The notes beneath the pieces were generated by a model. That model was not told the origin of the DNA. It did not search any database and was given only the letters and a program-made list of their open reading frames with translations. Below, piece after piece: positions 6,011-59,225 of a stretch of 59,225 nucleotides of DNA. This DNA is from Mustelus asterias (lineage: Eukaryota), in contig NW_027590191.1 in the NCBI RefSeq assembly GCF_964213995.1, positions 744,001 through 803,225 on the forward strand, given 5' to 3'. Numbering within the stretch: the first letter of the stretch is position 1; the number at the start of each line of letters is the position of its first letter. A program made the position numbers and the translations under genes.

Positions 6011-6664
6011 GTTGATCGAATCGTTTGAGCTTTTAGTGGTGGAGTATTGACAAATGGGGTAACTTAATCAATCTCTTTGCATATGAGAAGTATCTAAATG
6101 GTGTCTGTCTGGTGAAAAGTAGTTGAGACCTGCTCATATCGGACATTATCTTCTTGAATGGCGGGTCAGGCGTGAGGGACCAACAGACTTCTCATATAGC
6201 AAACCTGCCATCCCAGGAATCAGCCTGGTAAACCTTCGCTCTACTCCCTCTATACCAAGGATATCCTTCCTCAAATAGTAAAGCTCTGATTTCAATCAGT
6301 CAATATTTCTTCTCCACAAATATAAAATGGGACAATTCTGAAGCTGCATTTGATAATTGATCACTTTTAAAATGTGTCGCCTGACAGAAAGGCACCTGAT
6401 CCATATCTTTTCTAAGTACAGCTTAACGAAGTTATTCACCTGGGGTAATCTGCAAATTTGTGCGAATTTGATCGGAGAATGATTGGATTTGATCCGGGAA
6501 TAATATGACCGCCAAATGTGACATTTCACAATACTGATAATGGATGAGCTCTGCGGGGAATATCGTTCAGCTGGGGCTGTATTGTCCCCTTCCCTTTCTG
6601 TGCATTTTCGATGAGATCCGACTCTCTTTTCCTGACACAGAACACTTGATTATCGACCTGCACT

Positions 6665-6703
6665 AGTTTTTGTATGAGGCCCATGGGAGGCTCATGCACT
6701 GTG
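6665..6703 (-). promoter_or_regulatory. V(D)J recombination signal sequence, 23-bp spacer
   Basis: Minus strand CACAGTG (6703-6697), exactly 23 nt, then ACAAAAACT (6673-6665), directly after YYCALRP. Confidence 0.97.
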
Positions 6704-7013
6704 GGTCTCAGTGCACAGTAATACACGGCGCTGTCTGGCATCTTCAAATCTTTCATTGACAAGTGAAAAGTGCTTTGTTTCTGGTTGAGGTTCCCGCTGA
6801 AATGTTTAAAGCCGGGAGCCGTCTCGTTAAACCCATAACTATCGGCTCTGAGCAGATACCGAGGAGCTCGATGTGTATACTGGCGATACCAGAACAGGTA
6901 ATGTTGTACAGCTGAACTCGGTACCGAGTAACTGCAGGGTATTGCTGAATCTTCACCCTCTGCTGCTTCAACTCCTGGTTCTGACTGGGACACTGAGTCT
7001 CCGTTACTCACGT
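6704..7013 (-). pseudogene. TRAV: T-cell receptor alpha/delta variable gene segment, V exon (open frame, leader disrupted)
   Basis: Ig V-set domain GDSVSQ..C..LFWYRQ..APRYLL..FHLSM..DSAVYYCALR; CAG acceptor at 7016-7014 (phase 1); 23-RSS downstream. Confidence 0.92.
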
Positions 7014-7015
7014 CT

Positions 7016-7334
7016 GCCTTTGGCTAAGATCAAGTGTAGTATAGATTGCCTGCACTTGGTTGGGGTCATTGGGTTACGCTGAGGCTTCATATGTTTCATA
7101 TGAAGCAATTTTTAAAAGCGGCATCTCGGCCTTTTGGCTAAGATGCAAATGAGCTCAAGTCTTGGAGGAGGAACCTCCCCCTTCTCCAATCAGCTTGACT
7201 CATGTAGATCAGGCCCAGGACAGGGGGGTTTTGGTCTCCCGTCCTGTCTTGTCAGCCTGGATCTGAAATGTCTCAACTTGTTGAGACTCTGAATTGGATT
7301 TGATTTGATTGAATTGGAAAAGTATAAAAAAAAA
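7016..7334 (+). mobile_element. candidate dimeric U2 snRNA-headed SINE
   Basis: 7016-7042 = U2 nt 12-39 (one T missing); 7121-7144 = U2 nt 4-27 (one mismatch); non-U2 hairpin-rich body; A9 tail 7326-7334; interrupts an otherwise normal intron end. Confidence 0.75.
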
Positions 7335-7459
7335 GAAAATATACAGCGGATACAAAGCGGGTTAGGAGACAGAGGAAGACAATAGTCACACAGAGCTGGG
7401 AAACGGAAATTGCACAAGGGTTGAAATATACTTTACAATATAAGATCAGAATCACTGAC

Positions 7460-7475
7460 CTGGGATCAGAGCAAT
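7460..7475 (-). pseudogene. 3' remnant of the TCR V leader exon
   Basis: Minus strand ATT GCT CTG ATC CCA G|GTCAGT: IALIP plus phase-1 donor at 7459-7454, which splices in frame to the V exon (D-VSNGDSV); 5' part replaced by repeats. Confidence 0.75.
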
Positions 7476-7514
7476 AGTAAGAAGTCTCACAACACCAGGT
7501 TAAAGTCCAACAGG
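7476..7514. mobile_element. truncated Penelope-like terminal repeat (family A)
   Basis: AGTAAGAAGTCTCACAACACCAGGTTAAAGTCCAACAGG, same as copies at 30956 and 41684; cut by the Tx1 poly(A) end. Confidence 0.75.
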
Positions 7515-7804
7515 TTTTTTTTTATTTCAAAAATATACTTTATTCACACAAAAAAAACTCTCCAATAAAACATTGCAAAATTACAGATCCAAAAGTCATA
7601 AACAGTGTAAAAAAGAATCATTTTTACAGTCCAATACCGTGCTCATTTACAAAAACATTACATTCCATTACATTTCATTTCTTAAAACTATATACATGTG
7701 TCAGAGTTTACTGTGTGCCGTTATTTTTCAGGTTGGCACACAGTTACGCAGGCCGAGAGTATTCTGCAGTTACCCGGCCCTCGGTCTGCCTCGGTTGAGA
7801 CGCT

Positions 7805-10800
7805 TTACACGGTGGTCTTTCCCCATTGTGCCTTGGCGGCGGCTGCCCCAAGCTTGACCGCGTCCCTCAGCACGTAGTCCTGGACCTTGGAATGTGCCAG
7901 TCTGCAACACTCGGTCGAGGACAATTCTTTCAGCTGGAAGATCAGCAAGTTTCGGGCGGACCAAAGCGCGTCCTTCACCGAGTTGATGACCCTCCAGCAG
8001 CGGTTGATATTTGTCTCGGTGTGCGTCCCCGGAAACAGCCCGTAGAGCACAGAGTCCTGCGTCACCGAGCTGCTCGGGACGAACCGCGACAAATACCACT
8101 GCATCTCGTTCCAGACCTTCTTTGCAAAGGCACATTCCACAAGGAGGTGTGCCACCGTCTCATCAGCCCCGCAGCCGCTTCGAGGGCAGCGTGCGGTGAG
8201 GTTGAGACCCCGGGCGTGCATAAAGGATCTGACGGGGAGTGCCCTTCTCACCACCAGCCAAGCCAGGTCTTGGTGCTTGTTTGTGAGTTCTGGTGATGAG
8301 GTATTCTGCCAAATGACATTGACAGTCCGCTCAGGGAACCATCCGACAGGATCTGCCGTCTCCTTTTCTCTCAGGGCCTCAAGGACATTACGTGCTGACC
8401 ACTGCTTGATAGCCATGTGGTCAAAGGTGTGTTTCCGGAAGAATTTCTCCACGAAGGACAGGTGCTGCGGTACGGTCCAACTACTTGGAACGTTCCGCGG
8501 CAATGTGGCCAGACCCATCCTCCGCAACACTTGGGACAGGTAGAACCTCAAAAAATAGTGGCACTTGCTGTTACTGTACCGAGGATCTACACACAGCTTG
8601 ATGCAGCCGCACACAAAGGTGGCCATCAGGATGAGGGCGGCGTTGGGAACGTTTTTCCCTCCATTCTCTGGAGATTTGTGCATCGCCTCCCTCCGGACAC
8701 GATCCATCTTTGATCTCCAGATGAACTTGAAGATGGCCCGGGTCACTGCTGCTGCGCAGGACTTGGGGATTGGCCACACCTGCGCCACGTACAACAACAC
8801 GGACAGAACCTCGCATCAGATCACAAGGTTCTTCCCAGTAATGGAGAGGGAGCGTTGCTCCCACAATCCCAATTTTTGTTTGGCTTTGGCGATGCGCTCC
8901 TCCCAGTTTTTGGCGCATGCCCCTGGCGCTCCGAACCATATCCCCAGCACCTTGAGGTAGTCGGCCCTAATGGTGAAAGGGACAAAGGATGTGTCAGGCC
9001 AGTTCCCAAAGAATATGGCCTCACTCTTACCCTGGTTGACTTTGGCCCCCGAGGCCAGCTCGAACTGCTCACATACTCGAAGAAGCCTGCGAACAGACGA
9101 GGGGTCCGAGCAGAAAACAGCCACGTCATCCATGTAGAGGGAGGCTTTGACTTGCGTCCCTCCGCTGCCTGGGATTGTAACCCCTTTGATGCCTGAGTCG
9201 CTTCTGAGGGCCTCGGCAAAGGGTTCAATGCAACACACAAAAAGGACGGAGAGAGGGCAGCCCTGCCTGACTCCAGACCTGATTTGAAACATATCTGATT
9301 CCCACCCATTGATTGAAACTGCGCTACTGATGTCTGTGTAGAGCAGTTGGATCCAATTGCAGATTCCCTCCCCAAATCCCATTTTGGAGAGCACATCCAC
9401 CATGTAGCTGTGCGATATTCTGTCAAACGCCTTCTCCTGGTCTAGACTGATGAGGCAGGTGTCCACCCGCCTGTCCTGCACGTAGGCGATCGTATCCCTG
9501 AGTAGCGCAAGGCTATCAGAGATCTTCCTGCCGGGTACAGCACAGGTTTGATCAGGATGGATTACTGACCCCAGAGCAGACTTGACCCGGTTGGCGATGA
9601 CCTTGGCCAGAATCTTGTAATCCACATTCAATAGTGAAATAGGTCTCCAATTTCTAATTTCTTCCCTTTCCCCCTTCTGCTTGTAGATGAGAGTAATGAT
9701 GCCTTTCCTCATGGATTCTGACATGCTGCCTTCCAGAAGCATACTCTCGTATACTTCCAGGAGGTCCGGGCCCGTCAAGTCCCACAACGCCGAGTAAAAC
9801 TCAGCCGGTAAGCCGTCGCTACCGGGAGTTTTACCCTTCTGAAGGGACTCGACGGCCTTTGTCAGCTCATCCAGAGCTACCGGTCTGTCCAGGCTCTCCC
9901 GCTCGCCGTCGTCCATGACTTGCGTGATGGACGACAGGAAAGACTGGGAGGCCGTGCTGTCTGTTGGCTTCAGGTCATACAGTCCGGCATAGAAGGATTT
10001 GCAGATCCTCAGAATGTCAGACTGCGATGACCCTACAGAGCCATCTTCTTCCTTCAGGCTTGTGATCACAGAGGATTCTCTGTGCACCTTCTGGAAGAAG
10101 AAGCGCGAGCACGTTTCGTCCTGCTCCACGGAGCGGACCCTGGACCGGAAGATAACCTTGGAGGCCTCCGAGGCAAAGAGCGAGGCTTGCTGGCTCTTCA
10201 CCTCCCTGAGGTCCTCCTTGACATCCACCCCCATCGACTGCAGTTGGAGTAGCTCCTGCATGCTTTTCTGGAGTCGGGACATTTCCCCCCGTCTCTCCCT
10301 GGCCTTCTGAACCCCTTTTCGGATGAAGAACCTCTTGATGTTGCCCTTGATGGTTTCCCACCAGAGCGATGGAGACTCAAAGAAGGGTTTCACGGTTCTC
10401 CAACCGTGGTAAACCCTCTTGAGTTCCTCGAGGTTCTCTGGGGTCAACAGTTCTACATTAAGCTTCCAGGACCCCCTGCCCACTTTCTGGTTTTCCTCCA
10501 GCTGACAGTCTGCCAGCAGGAGGCAGTGGTCAGAGAAGAACACCGGCTTGACGTCGGTGGACCTGACCGTGAGCGCGCGGGATACAAACATGAAGTTGAT
10601 CCTGGAGCGGACAGACCCGTCTGGCCGCGACCACGTGTATCTATGCTGCCCTCCGTCTGCTGGATTGCTGAAGACGTCGAGCAGCTTGGCATCTTTGACT
10701 GTTTCCAGCAGGGCTCTGGACGTAGCGTCCAGTTTACTTTCGGCCCTGTTGGATCGGCCGGCCTTGTCAATGATGCAGTCAAAGTCCCCACCCAGTATGA

Positions 10801-11209
10801 TTGGCCTGGAGGTGGTGAGTAGCAGTGGCAGCTGTTCGAAGAGTGCCAGCCGCTCGGTCTTGACGGCAGGGGCATACACATTGATCAGCCTGAGAGGGCA
10901 GTTTTTGTACGTGACATCTGCTACGAGGAGGCGTCCTCCCACCACCTCCTTAACTTCGGAGACGGTGAAGTTGCCCCCCCGCAGCAGAATGCCTAGGCCG
11001 GATGAACGGCAGTCGTTCCCACCTGACCAGATGGACGGTCCGTGGGACCACACACTCGACCAGCGCCTGTAGTTGCTGAGGTGTGGTATTCCACACTCCT
11101 GCAGGAACAGCAGGTCGGCCTTGATCTTGGCCAGGTAGGACAAGCTGGCCGCAAATCTCAGGCTGTCTTTAACACTGCGAACATTTAAGGATGCAAACTT
11201 TAAAGACAT
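7805..11209 (-). pseudogene. Tx1/Keno ORF2 (APE endonuclease + RT + C-terminal CCHC) with one in-frame stop
   Basis: ORFs 8816-11209 and 7805-8800 share a frame, separated by TGA at 8818-8816; motifs SLNVRS, LQEC, FSDH, PGSDG, DQEKAFD, YMDD, CPRSGC..H..C; endonuclease motifs altered (GDFD for GDFN, RIN for RID). Confidence 0.92.
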
Positions 11210-11213
11210 TTTA

Positions 11214-13334
11214 ATGTTTAAGAGGTTTGTCAGTTCTTACGTGTCCTTCTTTATTGGGATCAGGCAGAAATTGGCAGCTCTTGATTGGGAGAGGCTGTTT
11301 GAGGGTAAATCCACATCTGGTATGTGGCAGTCTTTTAAGGAACGGTTGTTAGGGCTACAGGACAAGCATGTGCCTGTAAAAAAGAAGGATAGGAAGGGTA
11401 GGATTAGAGAACCGTGGATAACCAGGGAAATTGAGGGACTGGTCAAAAGGAAAAGAGAGGCGTATGTTAGGTCCAATCAGCTAAAAACGGAGGGAGCTCT
11501 GGAGGAGTATAATGAAAGTAGGAAAATACTCAAACGGGGAATTAGAAGAGCAAAAAGGGGTCACGAAATGTTCTTGGCAGACAGGATTAAGGAGAATCCC
11601 AAGGCATTTTATTCATACGTTAGGAACAAAAGGGTTGTTAGGGAAAAAATCGGACCTCTCAGGGACAAAAGTGGGGACTTATGCTTGGAGCCCAAAGAGG
11701 TAGGGGAGATCCTAAATGAATACTTTACGTCGGTATTCACAAAGGAGAGGGATGTGTTGACTGGGAGTGTCTCAGAGGGGAGTGTTGAACCGTTGGAGAA
11801 AATCTCCATTACAAAGGAGGAAGTGTTAGGTTTGTTAGAGAATATAAAGACTGACAAATCCCCAGGGCCTGATGGAATCTATCCAAGGCTGCTCAGGGAG
11901 ACGAGAGGTGAAATCGTTGGGCCTCTGACGCAAATCTTTGTCTCGTCACTGGACACAGGTGAGGTCCCAGAGGATTGGAGGATAGCCAATGTGGTCCCGT
12001 TATTTAAGAAGGGTAGGAAGGATAACCCGGGTAATTATAGGCCGGTGAGCTTGACGTCCGTGGTGGGGAAGTTGTTGGAGAAGATTCTTAAAGATAGGAT
12101 GTATGCGCATTTAGAAAGGAATAAACTCATTAACGATAGTCAACATGGTTTTGTGAGAGGGAGGTCATGCCTCACGAACCTGGTGGTGTTTTTTGAAGAA
12201 GTGACCAAAATGGTTGACGAAGGAAGGGCCGTGGATGTTGTCTATATGGACTTTAGTAAAGCATTTGACAAAGTCCCTCATGGTAGGCTAGTGAAAAAGG
12301 TTGGATCCCATGGGATAAAGGGGGAGGTGGCTAGATGGATGGAGAACTGGCTTGGTCATAGAAGACAGAGGGTGGTAGTGGAAGGGTCTTTTTCCGGCTG
12401 GAGGCCTGTGACTAGTGGTGTACCGCAGGGCTCTGTATTGGGACCTCTGCTGTTTGTGATTTATATAAATGATCTGGAAGAAGGAGTAACTGGGGTGATC
12501 AGTAAGTTTGCGGACGACACAAAACTGGCAGGACTTGCAGATAGTGAGGAACATTGTCAGAGGCTACAGAAGGATATAGATAGGCTGGAAATTTGGGCAA
12601 GGAAATGGCAGATGGAGTTCAATCCTGATAAATGCGAAGTGATGCATTTTGGTGGGAATAATGTAGGGAGGAGCTACACGATAAATGGAAGAACCATAAA
12701 GGGTGTAGAGACGCAGAGGGACCTGGGTGTGCAAGTCCACAGATCTTTGAAGGTGACGTCACAGGTGGAGAAGGTGGTGAAGAAGGCATATGGCATGCTT
12801 GCCTTTATAGGATGGGGCATAGAGTATAAAAGTTGGGGTCTGATGTTGCAGATGTATAGAACGTTGGTTCGGCCGCATTTGGAATACTGCGTCCAGTTCT
12901 GGTCACCACACTACCAGAAGGACGTGGAGGCTTTGGAGAGAGTACAGAGGAGGTTTACCAGGATGTTGCCTGGTATGGAGGGGCTTGGTTATGAGGAGAG
13001 ATTGGGGAAACTGGGGTTGTTCTCCTTGGAAAGACGGAGGATGAGGGGAGACTTAATAGAGGTGTATAAAATTATGAAAGGCATAGATAGGGTGAACGGT
13101 GGGAAGCTTTTCCCCGGGTCGGTGGTGACGTTCACGAGGGGTCATAGGTTCAAGGTGAAGGGGGGGAGGTTTAACACAGATATCAGAAGGACATATTTGA
13201 CACAGAGGGTCGTGGGGGCCTGGAATGTGTTGCCGGGCAAGGTGGTGGAGGCGGACACACTGGGAACGTTTAAGACTTATCTAGACAGCTATATGAACGG
13301 AGTGGGAATGGAGGGATACAAAAGAGTGGTCTAG
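11214..13334 (+). CDS. CR1 ORF2 fragment (RT domain, no endonuclease)
   Basis: 706-aa open frame with [25 protein letters not shown]; first ~12 codons derive from antisense Tx1 spacer. Confidence 0.8.
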   Translation: MFKRFVSSYVSFFIGIRQKLAALDWERLFEGKSTSGMWQSFKERLLGLQDKHVPVKKKDRKGRIREPWITREIEGLVKRKREAYVRSNQLKTEGALEEYNESRKILKRGIRRAKRGHEMFLADRIKENPKAFYSYVRNKRVVREKIGPLRDKSGDLCLEPKEVGEILNEYFTSVFTKERDVLTGSVSEGSVEPLEKISITKEEVLGLLENIKTDKSPGPDGIYPRLLRETRGEIVGPLTQIFVSSLDTGEVPEDWRIANVVPLFKKGRKDNPGNYRPVSLTSVVGKLLEKILKDRMYAHLERNKLINDSQHGFVRGRSCLTNLVVFFEEVTKMVDEGRAVDVVYMDFSKAFDKVPHGRLVKKVGSHGIKGEVARWMENWLGHRRQRVVVEGSFSGWRPVTSGVPQGSVLGPLLFVIYINDLEEGVTGVISKFADDTKLAGLADSEEHCQRLQKDIDRLEIWARKWQMEFNPDKCEVMHFGGNNVGRSYTINGRTIKGVETQRDLGVQVHRSLKVTSQVEKVVKKAYGMLAFIGWGIEYKSWGLMLQMYRTLVRPHLEYCVQFWSPHYQKDVEALERVQRRFTRMLPGMEGLGYEERLGKLGLFSLERRRMRGDLIEVYKIMKGIDRVNGGKLFPGSVVTFTRGHRFKVKGGRFNTDIRRTYLTQRVVGAWNVLPGKVVEADTLGTFKTYLDSYMNGVGMEGYKRVV

Positions 13335-13873
13335 TTTGGACCAGGGAACGGCGCGGGCTAATTGTTCCTGGTTTCTCGTTTCAAGGCTTCATTCTATGAT
13401 CATCTTGCTGGTGCCAGTACAGAGCGAGACTGCGGATAGTTGGGAACCTGTCTCGGGGGCAGGGAATTCATATGGTGTTCGTGGAAGTGGAAATGACTAG
13501 GGTTGGGAAGCATTTTCCGATCAGGGCCATTGTGATCTCCTGGACTCGTTTCGATCGCCTCAGGGGGTCGGAGAGGAATTTCCCAGATTTTTTTTCCCCA
13601 TATTGGCCCTGGGGTTTTTCACTCTGGGTTTTCGCCTCTCCCTGGAGATCACATGGTCTGGAATGGGGGGGTGGGGGTAGGTTAATAGGTTGTAATGAAC
13701 AAAGCATCGTAGCTGTGAGGGACAGCTCGGTGGATAGGATATTGGTATGTAGATAGGCTGGAAAATTGGGCGGGGATCCTGGATTCAGGATTCAATCCTG
13801 GACCGGGGAGCGGCGCGGGCTTGGGGGGCCGAAGGGCCTGTTCCTGTGCTGTATTGTTCTTTGTTCTTTGTTC
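11250..13873 (+). mobile_element. 5'-truncated CR1 LINE nested in the Tx1 inter-ORF spacer
   Basis: CR1 RT ORF, (TTCTTTG)n tail ending 13873, TTC at both junctions (11247-11249, 13871-13873). Confidence 0.92.
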
Positions 13874-15251
13874 AGTCAGCCTCCTCCAGGTGCTGCATTC
13901 CTGTGGCGCTGACGAAATTCTGCAGGGCTGCAGGGCTGAGGTAGCAGTCCGACCCTGCGTCAGGGCCCCGACCACGACTGGGTGACATGGTCGGTGTCGT
14001 GTAGCCCTCGGTTGGTGCTGGGCTTGCGGCCCGGTCTCCGCCTTGGGCGTTGTCGGTGTCCTCGTTCCTGCTGTCCGGGGCTTCGGGGGCCTCGGCCGCA
14101 CTGCTGCATCCGTCGGCTGGATGGTCCCCGGCTGCTTTGTGGTCGTTGGTCCGAGTCCATTGTGGTTCCCGTGCCGCTTTCCTAATGCGCCGTTTGAGGC
14201 TTTGTCGGTTGCCCGCTTTCTTTTCCTCGTCTGAGGAGACGTCGCCACTGGAGACCCTAGCTGCGCAGGATTTCCTTTTCTGGGTTCTTTTCTTTTTCTT
14301 TACCACCTGCCAGGGGCCCTCGGGATCTCCGTTCTCCTGCTCCGTGTCCTCTGCGCCCTCTGCTGGTGGTGGTGTGGATGTGTCATCATCCTGCTGCACT
14401 CGGGGGTCCACCTTTGCTTCAGAAGCTTTCTCCGTGCCAGCTTCTTTTGGGGTGGGCTTCTTGTTCCCTGAGGCGGCAGGAGCACTCGCCTTCCTCGCTC
14501 CGCCTCCGGTGATCTGGGCGTACGTGACCTTCCGCTTGGGGCAGACTCTGTATACATGGCCAGTCTCCCCACACAGGTTGCAACTTTTGCTTTCTTTGCA
14601 CTCGTCGGTCGAGTGCCCCTCCTTCAGGCAGTTTCTGCATACCGTGACGGTGCAGCTCGCGGCAAAATGGCCGGTTTTGCCACAGTTGCGGCACAGTCGT
14701 GGCTGGCCCGTGTAGTACAGGAAGCCTCGATTCCCTCCGATGGTAAAATTGGAGGGCGGGTGCAGAAGGCCTCCCTTGGGGTCAGTCTTCAGGGTGACTC
14801 TCACTTGCCTATTACAGGTCCATATTCCGTACTGGTCCATGACGTCCACGCTCTCTCCCTTCACCTCCACGTACCTGGAGAGGAACGTCAGCACATCAGC
14901 CGCAGGGACGAAGTGGTTATACATATGAAATGTGATAACCCGGTTCCGCTGGGACGGCATGGTGAACAGGGGCTCCGCCGTCAGGATAGAGAGGGGCCCT
15001 TCTTTGCCTTTCTCCTTCACCGCTGTCAGGAGCTTGAGGCATCCTGACAGGCTCCTGAAGCTGACATCCACGTGCGGCGGCTTGCTGTACTCAGCCACAC
15101 CGTAGACGTCGGCTGCTTGGAATCCGCAGCACTCGAACAATACCTTCTTCACGAGGTAGTCGCGGCCCACAGGCGAGCCTCCTCCCGAAGCCTTCACCCG
15201 GATGGTGTTGGGCTGCCTTTGGCCTGTAGCTTTCAGAGCAGCTGCAGCCAT
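13872..15251 (-). CDS. Tx1/Keno ORF1, gag-like nucleic-acid-binding protein with three CCHC zinc knuckles
   Basis: 459 aa intact; CRNCGKTGHFAASC, CRNCLKEGHSTDEC, CNLCGETGHVYRVC; basic then acidic disordered tail. Confidence 0.92.
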   Translation of the reverse strand: MAAAALKATGQRQPNTIRVKASGGGSPVGRDYLVKKVLFECCGFQAADVYGVAEYSKPPHVDVSFRSLSGCLKLLTAVKEKGKEGPLSILTAEPLFTMPSQRNRVITFHMYNHFVPAADVLTFLSRYVEVKGESVDVMDQYGIWTCNRQVRVTLKTDPKGGLLHPPSNFTIGGNRGFLYYTGQPRLCRNCGKTGHFAASCTVTVCRNCLKEGHSTDECKESKSCNLCGETGHVYRVCPKRKVTYAQITGGGARKASAPAASGNKKPTPKEAGTEKASEAKVDPRVQQDDDTSTPPPAEGAEDTEQENGDPEGPWQVVKKKKRTQKRKSCAARVSSGDVSSDEEKKAGNRQSLKRRIRKAAREPQWTRTNDHKAAGDHPADGCSSAAEAPEAPDSRNEDTDNAQGGDRAASPAPTEGYTTPTMSPSRGRGPDAGSDCYLSPAALQNFVSATGMQHLEEAD

Positions 15252-15444
15252 AGCTCGATAACACTGAGTCTTGCTGTACCGGCGTTAGGTCCAAGCCAGA
15301 GGCTTGAAACCAGCATAAAGATCCACCAGTAGCAGCAGAGCTCAAGTGTTGTAGACGGTCGTCTGCCGGTCGTCTGACGCCTGCTTCTTCAATCCACAAT
15401 CCCCATCGAAACTCGATAGCTCCTTGCGAAATCCGAGCCCTTGG

Positions 15445-15476
15445 CACTTGATCTTAGCCAAAAGGCCGAGAAGCAT
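15445..15476 (-). ncRNA. U2 snRNA 5' fragment fused to the Tx1 5' end (not a full gene)
   Basis: Minus strand (AT)GCTTCTCGGCCTTTTGGCTAAGATCAAGTG; 30/30 match to U2 nt 4-33. Confidence 0.93.
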
Positions 15477-57835: not shown

Positions 57836-58053
57836 CGTTCGCCCGAGTAGCGGGGGGCCCCGGGTCGGAGCCGGGCGGAAACTGTGGGTTTGTTTTCTTT
57901 TCTTTTTTTGTGAGTACCTTTATTTATTTTCTCGTTTTTGCTCACGGAGACGCCCGGTTTTTGTTTTTGTTTTGTTGGGTTTGTTTGTTTTTCGCTCCCT
58001 GCGGGGAGGAAGGAGGGAGGTGAGCTGCTGCCTGCCTTGCCCGGCCTGCCTGT

Positions 58054-59075
58054 TGCCTGCCTGCCTGCCGTCTGGCCTGCTTACCTGCCTGACTGCCGTC
58101 TGGCCTGCTTACCTGCCTGCCTGCCGTCTGGCCTGCTTACCTGCCTGCCTGCCGTCTGGCCTGCTTACCTGCCTGCCTGCCGTCTGGCCTGCTTACCTGC
58201 CTGCCTGCCGTCTGGCCTGCTTACCTGCCTGCCTGCCGTCTGGCCTGCTTACCTGCCTGCCTGCCGTCTGGCCTGCTTACCTGCCTGCCTGCCGTCTGGC
58301 CTGCTTACCTGCCTGCCTGCCGTCTGGCCTGCTTACCTGCCTGCCTGCCGTCTGGCCTGCTTACCTGCCTGCCTGCCGTCTGGCCTGCTTACCTGCCTGC
58401 CTGCCGTCTGGCCTGCTTACCTGCCTGCCTGCCGTCTGGCCTGCTTACCTGCCTGCCTGCCGTCTGGCCTGCTTACCTGCCTGCCTGCCGTCTGGCCTGC
58501 TTACCTGCCTGCCTGCCGTCTGGCCTGCTTACCTGCCTGCCTGCCGTCTGGCCTGCTTACCTGCCTGCCTGCCGTCTGGCCTGCTTACCTGCCTGCCTGC
58601 CGTCTGGCCTGCTTACCTGCCTGCCTGCCGTCTGGCCTGCTTACCTGCCTGCCTGCCGTCTGGCCTGCTTACCTGCCTGCCTGCCGTCTGGCCTGCTTGC
58701 CTGCCTGCCTGCCGTCTGGCCTGCTTGCCTGCCTGCCTGCCGTCTGGCCTGCTTGCCTGCCTGCCTGCCGTCTGGCCTGCTTGCCTGCCTGCCTGCCGTC
58801 TGGCCTGCTTGCCTGCCTGCCTGCCGTCTGGCCTGCTTGCCTGCCTGCCTGCCGTCTGGCCTGCTTGCCTGCCTGCCTGCCGTCTGGCCTGCTGCCTGCC
58901 GCTGGCCTGCTTGCCTGCCTGCCTGCCGTCTGGCCTGCTTGCCTGCCTGCCTGCCGTCTGGCCTGCCTGCCTGCCGTCTGGCCTGCCTGCCTGCCGTCTG
59001 GCCTGCCTGCCGGCCTGCTTGCCGTCTGGCCTACCTGCCGTCTGGACTGCCTGACTGCCTGCTTGCCTGCCATCC
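58054..59075. repeat. 28-bp minisatellite (CCTGCCTGCCTGCCGTCTGGCCTGCTT[A/G])n, about 30 regular units plus degenerate edges
   Basis: Direct reading; unit switches from CTTA to CTTG near 58697. Confidence 0.95.
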
Positions 59076-59225
59076 GGCCTCTGGAGGGTGCGCTCTCCCC
59101 GGGGGGAGGGAGGAAGAGAGGACAGGGAGTGACTGGAGGAGAAGGGGGGGGGGGCGAAGGCGTTTGGACTGTCTCTTTTCCATCTGCAGTGGGGGGGGTG
59201 AAGGCCTTTTCCTAATTCCCCAACC

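Follow-up and report, generated by a model that had tools for sequence, protein, structure and literature searches.

The window analysed here, a stretch of 59,225 nucleotides from the genome of the shark Mustelus asterias, contains at positions 7016 to 7334 a short segment with two pieces of U2 snRNA and an A tail, and the question that this locus raises is what the segment is a copy of and which machinery transcribed and moved it. An earlier note, made from the letters of the window, had read it as U2 nt 12-39, 78 nt of non-U2 sequence, U2 nt 4-27, a body and an A9 tail. Alignment to the main U2 gene of the same genome, the reference for all head matching, bears this layout out (Table 1). The extent given for the first head holds for the window copy but not for the family, in which head 1 is U2 1-39 (39/39). 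Its insertion site is the leader intron of a TCR-alpha-like V segment, where it sits in antisense orientation between the pyrimidine tract and the acceptor AG. The claim that its removal restores a normal intron end is upheld by the paralogous V-segment loci, 16 of 20 of which lack the SINE and retain the CCTAAC branch site and an intact CAG (intron end ...TTTTCAG or ...TTTCCAG); the locus in the window, together with 3 near-identical copies of the insertion it carries, makes up the remaining 4. At most 1 nt is duplicated at the insertion in the window, hence this copy has no real target site duplication (TSD).

Table 1. Features of the U2-headed SINE, its host segment and the neighbouring LINE in the window.
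Feature	Positions	Strand	Remarks
U2-headed SINE, whole copy	7016..7334	+	5'-truncated relative to the ~332-nt family consensus
Head 1	7016..7042	+	U2 snRNA nt 12/16-39 (7016/7019-7042), one T missing; 5'-truncated; G7016 is also part of the host CAG (- strand)
Non-U2 stretch	7043-7120		78 nt; U2 match never >7 nt
Anti-head arm	7050..7073	+	Modified inverted copy of U2 13-36
Hairpin 2	7084..7106	+	Partial deletion in older subfamilies
U5 run	7107..7115	+	Single-stranded, between hairpins; also a pol III terminator-like T run
Head 2	7121..7144	+	U2 nt 4-27, 23/24; folds as U2 stem I
Hairpin body	7145-7325	+	Fold prediction
Two long hairpins	7149..7265	+	Compensatory changes between subfamilies
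3' end	7257..7325	+	Weak similarity to the Keno 3' UTR end
A9 tail	7326..7334	+	
TCR-alpha-like V exon with recombination signal (host)	6660..7013	-	
Keno-type Tx1 LINE	7509..15474	-	Likely mobiliser family
U2 4-33 head of the LINE	15474-15445	-	
RT-coding insert interrupting the LINE	about 11250-13870		2.6-kb

The host V segment (6660-7476, minus strand) is probably dead: an upstream AG within the antisense SINE, at about 7290, would add 275 nt with stops in all frames if used, and a common repeat with the Keno 3' end interrupts the leader exon at about 7476, the ATG-bearing part being locally missing. Elsewhere in the window, C2H2 zinc-finger exons of either orientation form a cluster embedded among RT-coding repeats (16357-56013), and a long 28-nt tandem repeat (57913-59100) gives rise to spurious open frames.

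The segment is one copy of a young, abundant, non-autonomous retroposon family that consists of multiple subfamilies. In the genome, a 23-mer of the right half has 2,597 exact matches and one of the left half 2,627, compared with 0 for the reversed controls; because this count rests on exact matches, about 2,600 copies is a floor. A DNA search of the genome produced 2,474 candidates, of which the 40 that were scored show 97-100% identity; many copies are 98-100% alike among themselves, and some reach 100%. The family consensus is 332 nt long, begins at U2 nt 1, carries the heads U2 1-39 and U2 4-27, in this order, and ends in an A tail. Among 30 copies taken in genome order, a sample in which 28 of the places are on contig C1, identity to the young consensus is 82-99%; 23 of these extend from head to tail in a single match and 7 are 5'-truncated. 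In a set of 94 near-full copies, for which a start within nt 1-30 was required, best-hit loci were included and duplicates or U2 genes (L002-4, L031-53, L057-60 and L126-135) were left out, the 5' end coincides with U2 nt 1 in 29 copies and falls within nt 1-5 in 58. TSDs of at least 8 nt are present at 30 of 75 SINE or Keno clusters, as counted without a null control, and 30 reconstructed insertion sites are heterogeneous, with a weak site consensus. Several subfamilies can be told apart by the loop that follows U2 nt 39 and by the hairpin tips, with diagnostic changes shared among copies. The copies thus represent a replicating unit with a shared structure rather than independent chimeric retrocopies. 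The multicopy body, the joint occurrence of the two halves, the common 5' ends, the shared subfamily changes and the TSDs all agree with the non-autonomous family that the earlier note had proposed.

Neither U1 nor Keno appears to be the source of the body: U1 yields no match longer than 9 nt, and Keno only short chance matches except at the 3' end. Rfam gives no match in the whole window at the gathering threshold; at E<=10 there are, besides U2 fragments, weak miRNA, snoRNA and HDV-ribozyme scores that are far below the cut-off and were treated as chance. Regular-expression searches of the SINE give 0 matches each for the consensus of the pol III A box and B box. The SINE holds four internal T4-5 runs.

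The predicted fold of the SINE RNA comprises six hairpins (-136 kcal/mol, z -8.92), and none of 100 shuffles is as stable. Pairing is kept in 19 of the 24 pair variants common to at least 4 copies as opposed to 44 of the 127 variants seen in 1-2 copies (Fisher p 7e-5, an optimistic value because shared variants are not independent events), and two-sided, compensatory changes are found at 4 pairs. The structure is selected at the RNA level. In the family consensus, the anti-head arm is identical to inverted U2 13-36 at 15 of 24 positions, with 5 wobble-keeping changes and 4 that open internal loops, and it is predicted to fold back over head 1. Most of the branch-point/U6-pairing region of U2 is covered by the arm in this fold, and one can speculate that the arm might hide the head from the spliceosome. 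In one Keno subfamily, the 5' end likewise folds back over its U2 head (z -3.5); two other Keno 5' ends fold weakly (z -1.8 and -1.5). The U5 run between the hairpins is similar to an Sm site, without the final G of the Sm consensus. One SINE copy (L104:1595-1932) contains 28 A>G among 34 changes, a signature consistent with the one expected of ADAR editing of double-stranded RNA before insertion; A>G at consensus position 68, in a UAG context, occurs in 32 of 94 copies, across subfamilies. A genome-wide ADAR excess was considered and rejected: the excess of rare A>G changes is gone once the hyper-edited copy is removed (25 vs 24, p 0.19).

The LINE next to the SINE can be assigned to the Keno type, as the earlier note had surmised, by its APE endonuclease and RT, its U2 head and the insertion of family copies at U2 nt 37/38. 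ORF1 contains zinc knuckles, and ORF2 encodes the APE endonuclease (PF03372, E 5e-12), the RT (PF00078, E 3e-33) and a zf-RVT domain in two frames. In the main U2 array (C24), the 3' end of LINE copies that are 95-97% identical abuts U2 nt 38 exactly, and the same junction is present at 5 genes of a variant-U2 cluster (C21). In these combined features, the LINE resembles Keno as far as described in the available portions of PMC4494074 and PMC4640811 (Kojima & Jurka), the latter of which gives nt 37/38 as the insertion site of Keno/Utopia in U2. The two U2 clusters account for 19 of the 76 exact LINE tail matches, 15 of which are one amplified unit; at the 30 dispersed Keno loci examined, none lies in U2 or is followed by U2 38+. 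Targeting of U2 is loose, with most copies outside U2 genes, and the specificity is relaxed compared with that of Keno. The last ~70 nt of the SINE show a modest likeness to the end of the Keno 3' UTR, as suggested by a local score of 47 vs 29.9 +/- 5.4 (z about 3, shuffle maximum 56) and an anchored score of 24 vs 1.5 +/- 7.2 (8 of 2000 shuffles as high). A second Keno subfamily, with 88% identity to the first, supplies the tail that makes up the last 150 nt of the SINE-bearing locus L121 (C1:80.33 Mb), and L180 contains an 80% relative; the SINE tail might find a better match in an older Keno. One dispersed Keno copy (L123, C7:35.96 Mb) carries 92 bp of variant-U2 upstream DNA along with a U2 1-35 head, which implies that the LINE, too, has been mobilised from a U2 locus.

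The SINE and the LINE share their sites both within and outside U2 genes. The SINE tail is joined to U2 38+ in 5 exact matches, against 0 for the control: one is in the main array on C24, in tandem behind Keno, one in the native variant cluster on C21, where 263 bp of upstream spacer are present, two are in a block on C14, and one is dispersed, the latter being a transduction. Hence SINE copies sit at nt 37/38 inside U2 genes, at the same site as LINE copies, which confirms the link to the Keno site that the earlier note had drawn from the end of the first head. The variant cluster (C21:28048001-28082000; L136-L139) is built of 448-bp units that are 86-90% identical to main U2, with the first 72 nt unchanged and the stems kept; among its 11 units, 6 carry an insertion of the LINE and 1 of the SINE, so that 7 are interrupted. 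On C24 (44.82-44.93 Mb; L051), an 8,035-bp tandem unit composed of an intact U2 gene, Keno and U2 38-191 is present in ~15 copies and adjoins a plain 1,833-bp U2 array. One more SINE lies behind the main U2 upstream region; it is internally deleted and is the sole match to that pattern, which weighs against initiation at the U2 promoter.

Outside U2 genes, a SINE lies within 30 nt of the poly-A at 11 of the 30 dispersed Keno loci, compared with an expectation of 0.0007 if 6,000 copies are assumed. Arrays of this kind read X-Keno-X-SINE-X-SINE, where X is one TSD repeated. Of 19 SINE pairs, 16 have the copy nearer the young consensus on the 5' side. Insertion at a fixed distance from the older head was rejected given that the spacers, which correspond to the older TSD, range from -2 to 18 nt. 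One abundant repeat has been hit by several insertions of the SINE and of Keno (window 7476-7522; L005, L055, L083, L096, L098), which also occurs in the main U2 unit. The shared site at U2 nt 37/38 and the shared dispersed sites argue strongly that the SINE is mobilised in trans by the Keno ORF2, in line with the original suggestion of a Keno-like mobiliser. Rough searches of the genome gave about 60,600 candidates for U1 and about 135,700 for U2, far above the gene numbers, so that other snRNA-headed repeats may be present.

Which loci give rise to the SINE RNA can be approached through retrocopies that include flanking DNA. L122 and L124 are TSD-flanked dispersed copies with U2 5' pieces and 93 and 36 bp of variant upstream DNA, respectively; the C14 block, with an 18-bp TSD, and L121 both include the 3' part of U2, a spacer and the SINE; in L056, the SINE is preceded by U2 33-53 and followed by U2 38-58; and in L054 and L055, U2 pieces flank 5 nt of upstream DNA from the main gene. 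For the C14 and C1 blocks, an identity as native U2 genes was considered, which was ruled out because both are TSD-flanked retrocopies. Since dispersed retrocopies carry flanks of U2 genes, RNAs must have been made across SINE-bearing U2 loci and then mobilised. Initiation at U2 +1, from the U2 promoter, is probably the main transcription route, judging from the sequences. A comparison of promoter elements (PSE/DSE) with U1 and main-U2 upstream DNA revealed no octamer in the variant-U2 spacer, which matches U1 upstream DNA at 12 of 20 positions (shuffles 11.7); this spacer may not be a promoter.

An alternative is that a SINEU-like element mobilised by Keno owes its RNA to dispersed copies, transcribed from pol II promoters in the flanks or by read-through, with the U2 heads acquired through template switching onto abundant U2 snRNA, as in Kojima's model, and with residence in U2 genes following incidentally from the targeting by Keno. 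An extra U2 5' piece that ends at about nt 49-57 is present at 28 of 30 loci examined (31 matches; the search pattern itself selects for such ends), and the varied junctions resemble the 5' extensions of SINEU-2 (PMC4494074). These pieces fit template switching onto U2 RNA, and they fit as well transcription, starting at +1, of a resident copy that has duplicated U2 38-5x. Transcription of dispersed copies would also agree with the start of L121 in a Keno tail, which indicates that at least some source RNA is read-through, and with the search for an intact promoter-bearing master identical to the youngest subfamily, which found none, the nearest candidate (98.7%) being inside a retro-copied block. 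Mature U2 RNA, however, cannot supply either the untranscribed upstream DNA of L122, L124, the C14 block and L121 or the U2 38-58 after the tail of L056. Furthermore, the 5' ends cluster at U2 nt 1-5, and the head appears to belong to the master RNA because it is paired with a dedicated, conserved arm. On balance, we regard transcription from dispersed copies combined with template switching as rather unlikely.

Two further alternatives concern the identity of the family. It appears improbable that it is already curated in Repbase/Dfam or orthologous to a crocodilian SINEU-1 subfamily. Curated repeat libraries often hold families undescribed in papers, and the layout of two U2 pieces and a unique body resembles that of SINEU-1F as described in PMC4494074. 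Against this, according to the same source, SINEU-1 copies are at 83-92% relative to their consensus and none is known outside crocodilians, whereas the copies analysed here reach 100%, and searches of the openly accessible literature gave no such family in cartilaginous fish and no snRNA-headed SINE family outside crocodilians. The strong, selected structure and the Sm-like U run between hairpins could be taken to mean that the copies are processed pseudogenes of a functional non-coding RNA of the host, namely a variant Sm-type snRNA. The rapid turnover of subfamilies, with replacement of loops and hairpins, makes this highly improbable, as does the fact that Rfam gave no family beyond U2 fragments; besides, no stand-alone gene locus was seen, and the promoter-adjacent copies are insertions in U2 genes.

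The reading that we consider probable is a SINEU-like retroposon for which the resident Keno-type Tx1 LINE provides the copying machinery in trans, with source copies in U2 genes. The Keno machinery nicks U2 genes at nt 37/38 and, far more often, loose sites elsewhere, the SINE and Keno sharing these sites. At the DNA level, a copy placed at nt 37/38 is seen either to duplicate U2 38-5x or to join seamlessly, and the locus then consists of U2 upstream DNA, U2 1-39 and the SINE body. Transcription of such U2-resident copies would be by pol II, starting at the U2 gene, or would result from read-through of the U2 array; an RNA transcribed from the U2 gene would begin at U2 nt 1, and an internal promoter would be unneeded. 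RNAs of U2-resident copies have been retrotransposed, at times together with U2-gene flanks, with the Keno ORF2 presumably priming on the 3' ~70 nt and the A tail of the SINE. The fold-back arm may mask the U2 head and thereby keep the chimeric RNA from acting as U2 in splicing, and the second head could be the record of an earlier round of 5' addition. More tentatively, and as a possibility that we hold with some doubt, the SINE might be a self-renewing parasite of U2 genes: each insertion at nt 37/38 would rebuild a promoter-bearing master, masters would be replaced along with the turnover of U2 arrays, the selected fold-back arm, paralleled at the 5' end of one Keno subfamily, would mask the head from the spliceosome, and the thousands of dispersed SINEs would be decoy landing pads that take ~1/3 of the off-target Keno insertions.

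Crocodilian SINEU-1, -2 and -3, none of which was reported outside crocodilians, have a U2-derived head with repeated 5' addition of U2, a length below 500 bp, poly-A, internal T runs and no pol III promoter; their copies occur in tandem around one TSD, the Tx1 partner with a U2 head is Tx1-Mar, which targets Mariner-N4_AMi, and their transcription was left as an open question (Kojima 2015, PMC4494074). The shark SINE shares with them the U2 head, recurrent 5' U2 pieces, a non-coding sequence below 500 bp, poly-A, T runs and tandem TSD arrays, and is likewise paired with a U2-headed Tx1 LINE, as judged by shared targets. Unlike in SINEU, the partner in the shark is found at the Keno site in U2 genes, as is the SINE itself, there are retrocopies with U2-gene flanks, a fold-back arm covers the head, and the 3' tail shows a weak likeness to that of the LINE. 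The shark SINE lacks the U1 part of SINEU-2 and has no U2 sequence beyond nt 39, in contrast to SINEU-3 with its internally deleted U2 that includes the 3' part; with SINEU-1, the comparison is at the level of its published description. At the level of kind, the shark family has the features of SINEU, and it differs from the known SINEU in the Keno partner and the U2-gene source loci.

There is also a likeness to a target-specific LINE of ribosomal DNA, R2, and to the non-autonomous derivatives that R2 has in 28S rDNA: these are promoterless elements that rely on transcription of their target gene, as the SINE probably does. The target of the SINE is, in contrast, a pol II snRNA gene, its body is mostly not LINE-derived, and most copies are dispersed genome-wide. 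Co-transcription of R2 is cited in PMC4494074. Classical pol III SINEs (SINE1/2/3; shark SacSINE1, CmiSINE) are distinct in that the shark SINE has no 7SL, tRNA or 5S head and no A/B boxes; known chondrichthyan SINEs have tRNA heads in the portion of PMC5499810 that is available. The available portions of PMC5381603, PMC8143547, PMC7245038, PMC5499810 and PMC5786205 contain no snRNA-headed family in cartilaginous fish.

Altogether, the family points to more than one origin of the class of snRNA-headed SINEs and to mutual reuse of insertion sites between a U2-targeting LINE and its SINE. Young copies of the family would serve as insertion markers. The question of SINEU transcription (PMC4494074) obtains a testable answer in the form of named U2-resident loci. 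If the SINE is indeed a self-renewing parasite of U2 genes, no SINE with an snRNA head would have had its route of transcription demonstrated earlier.
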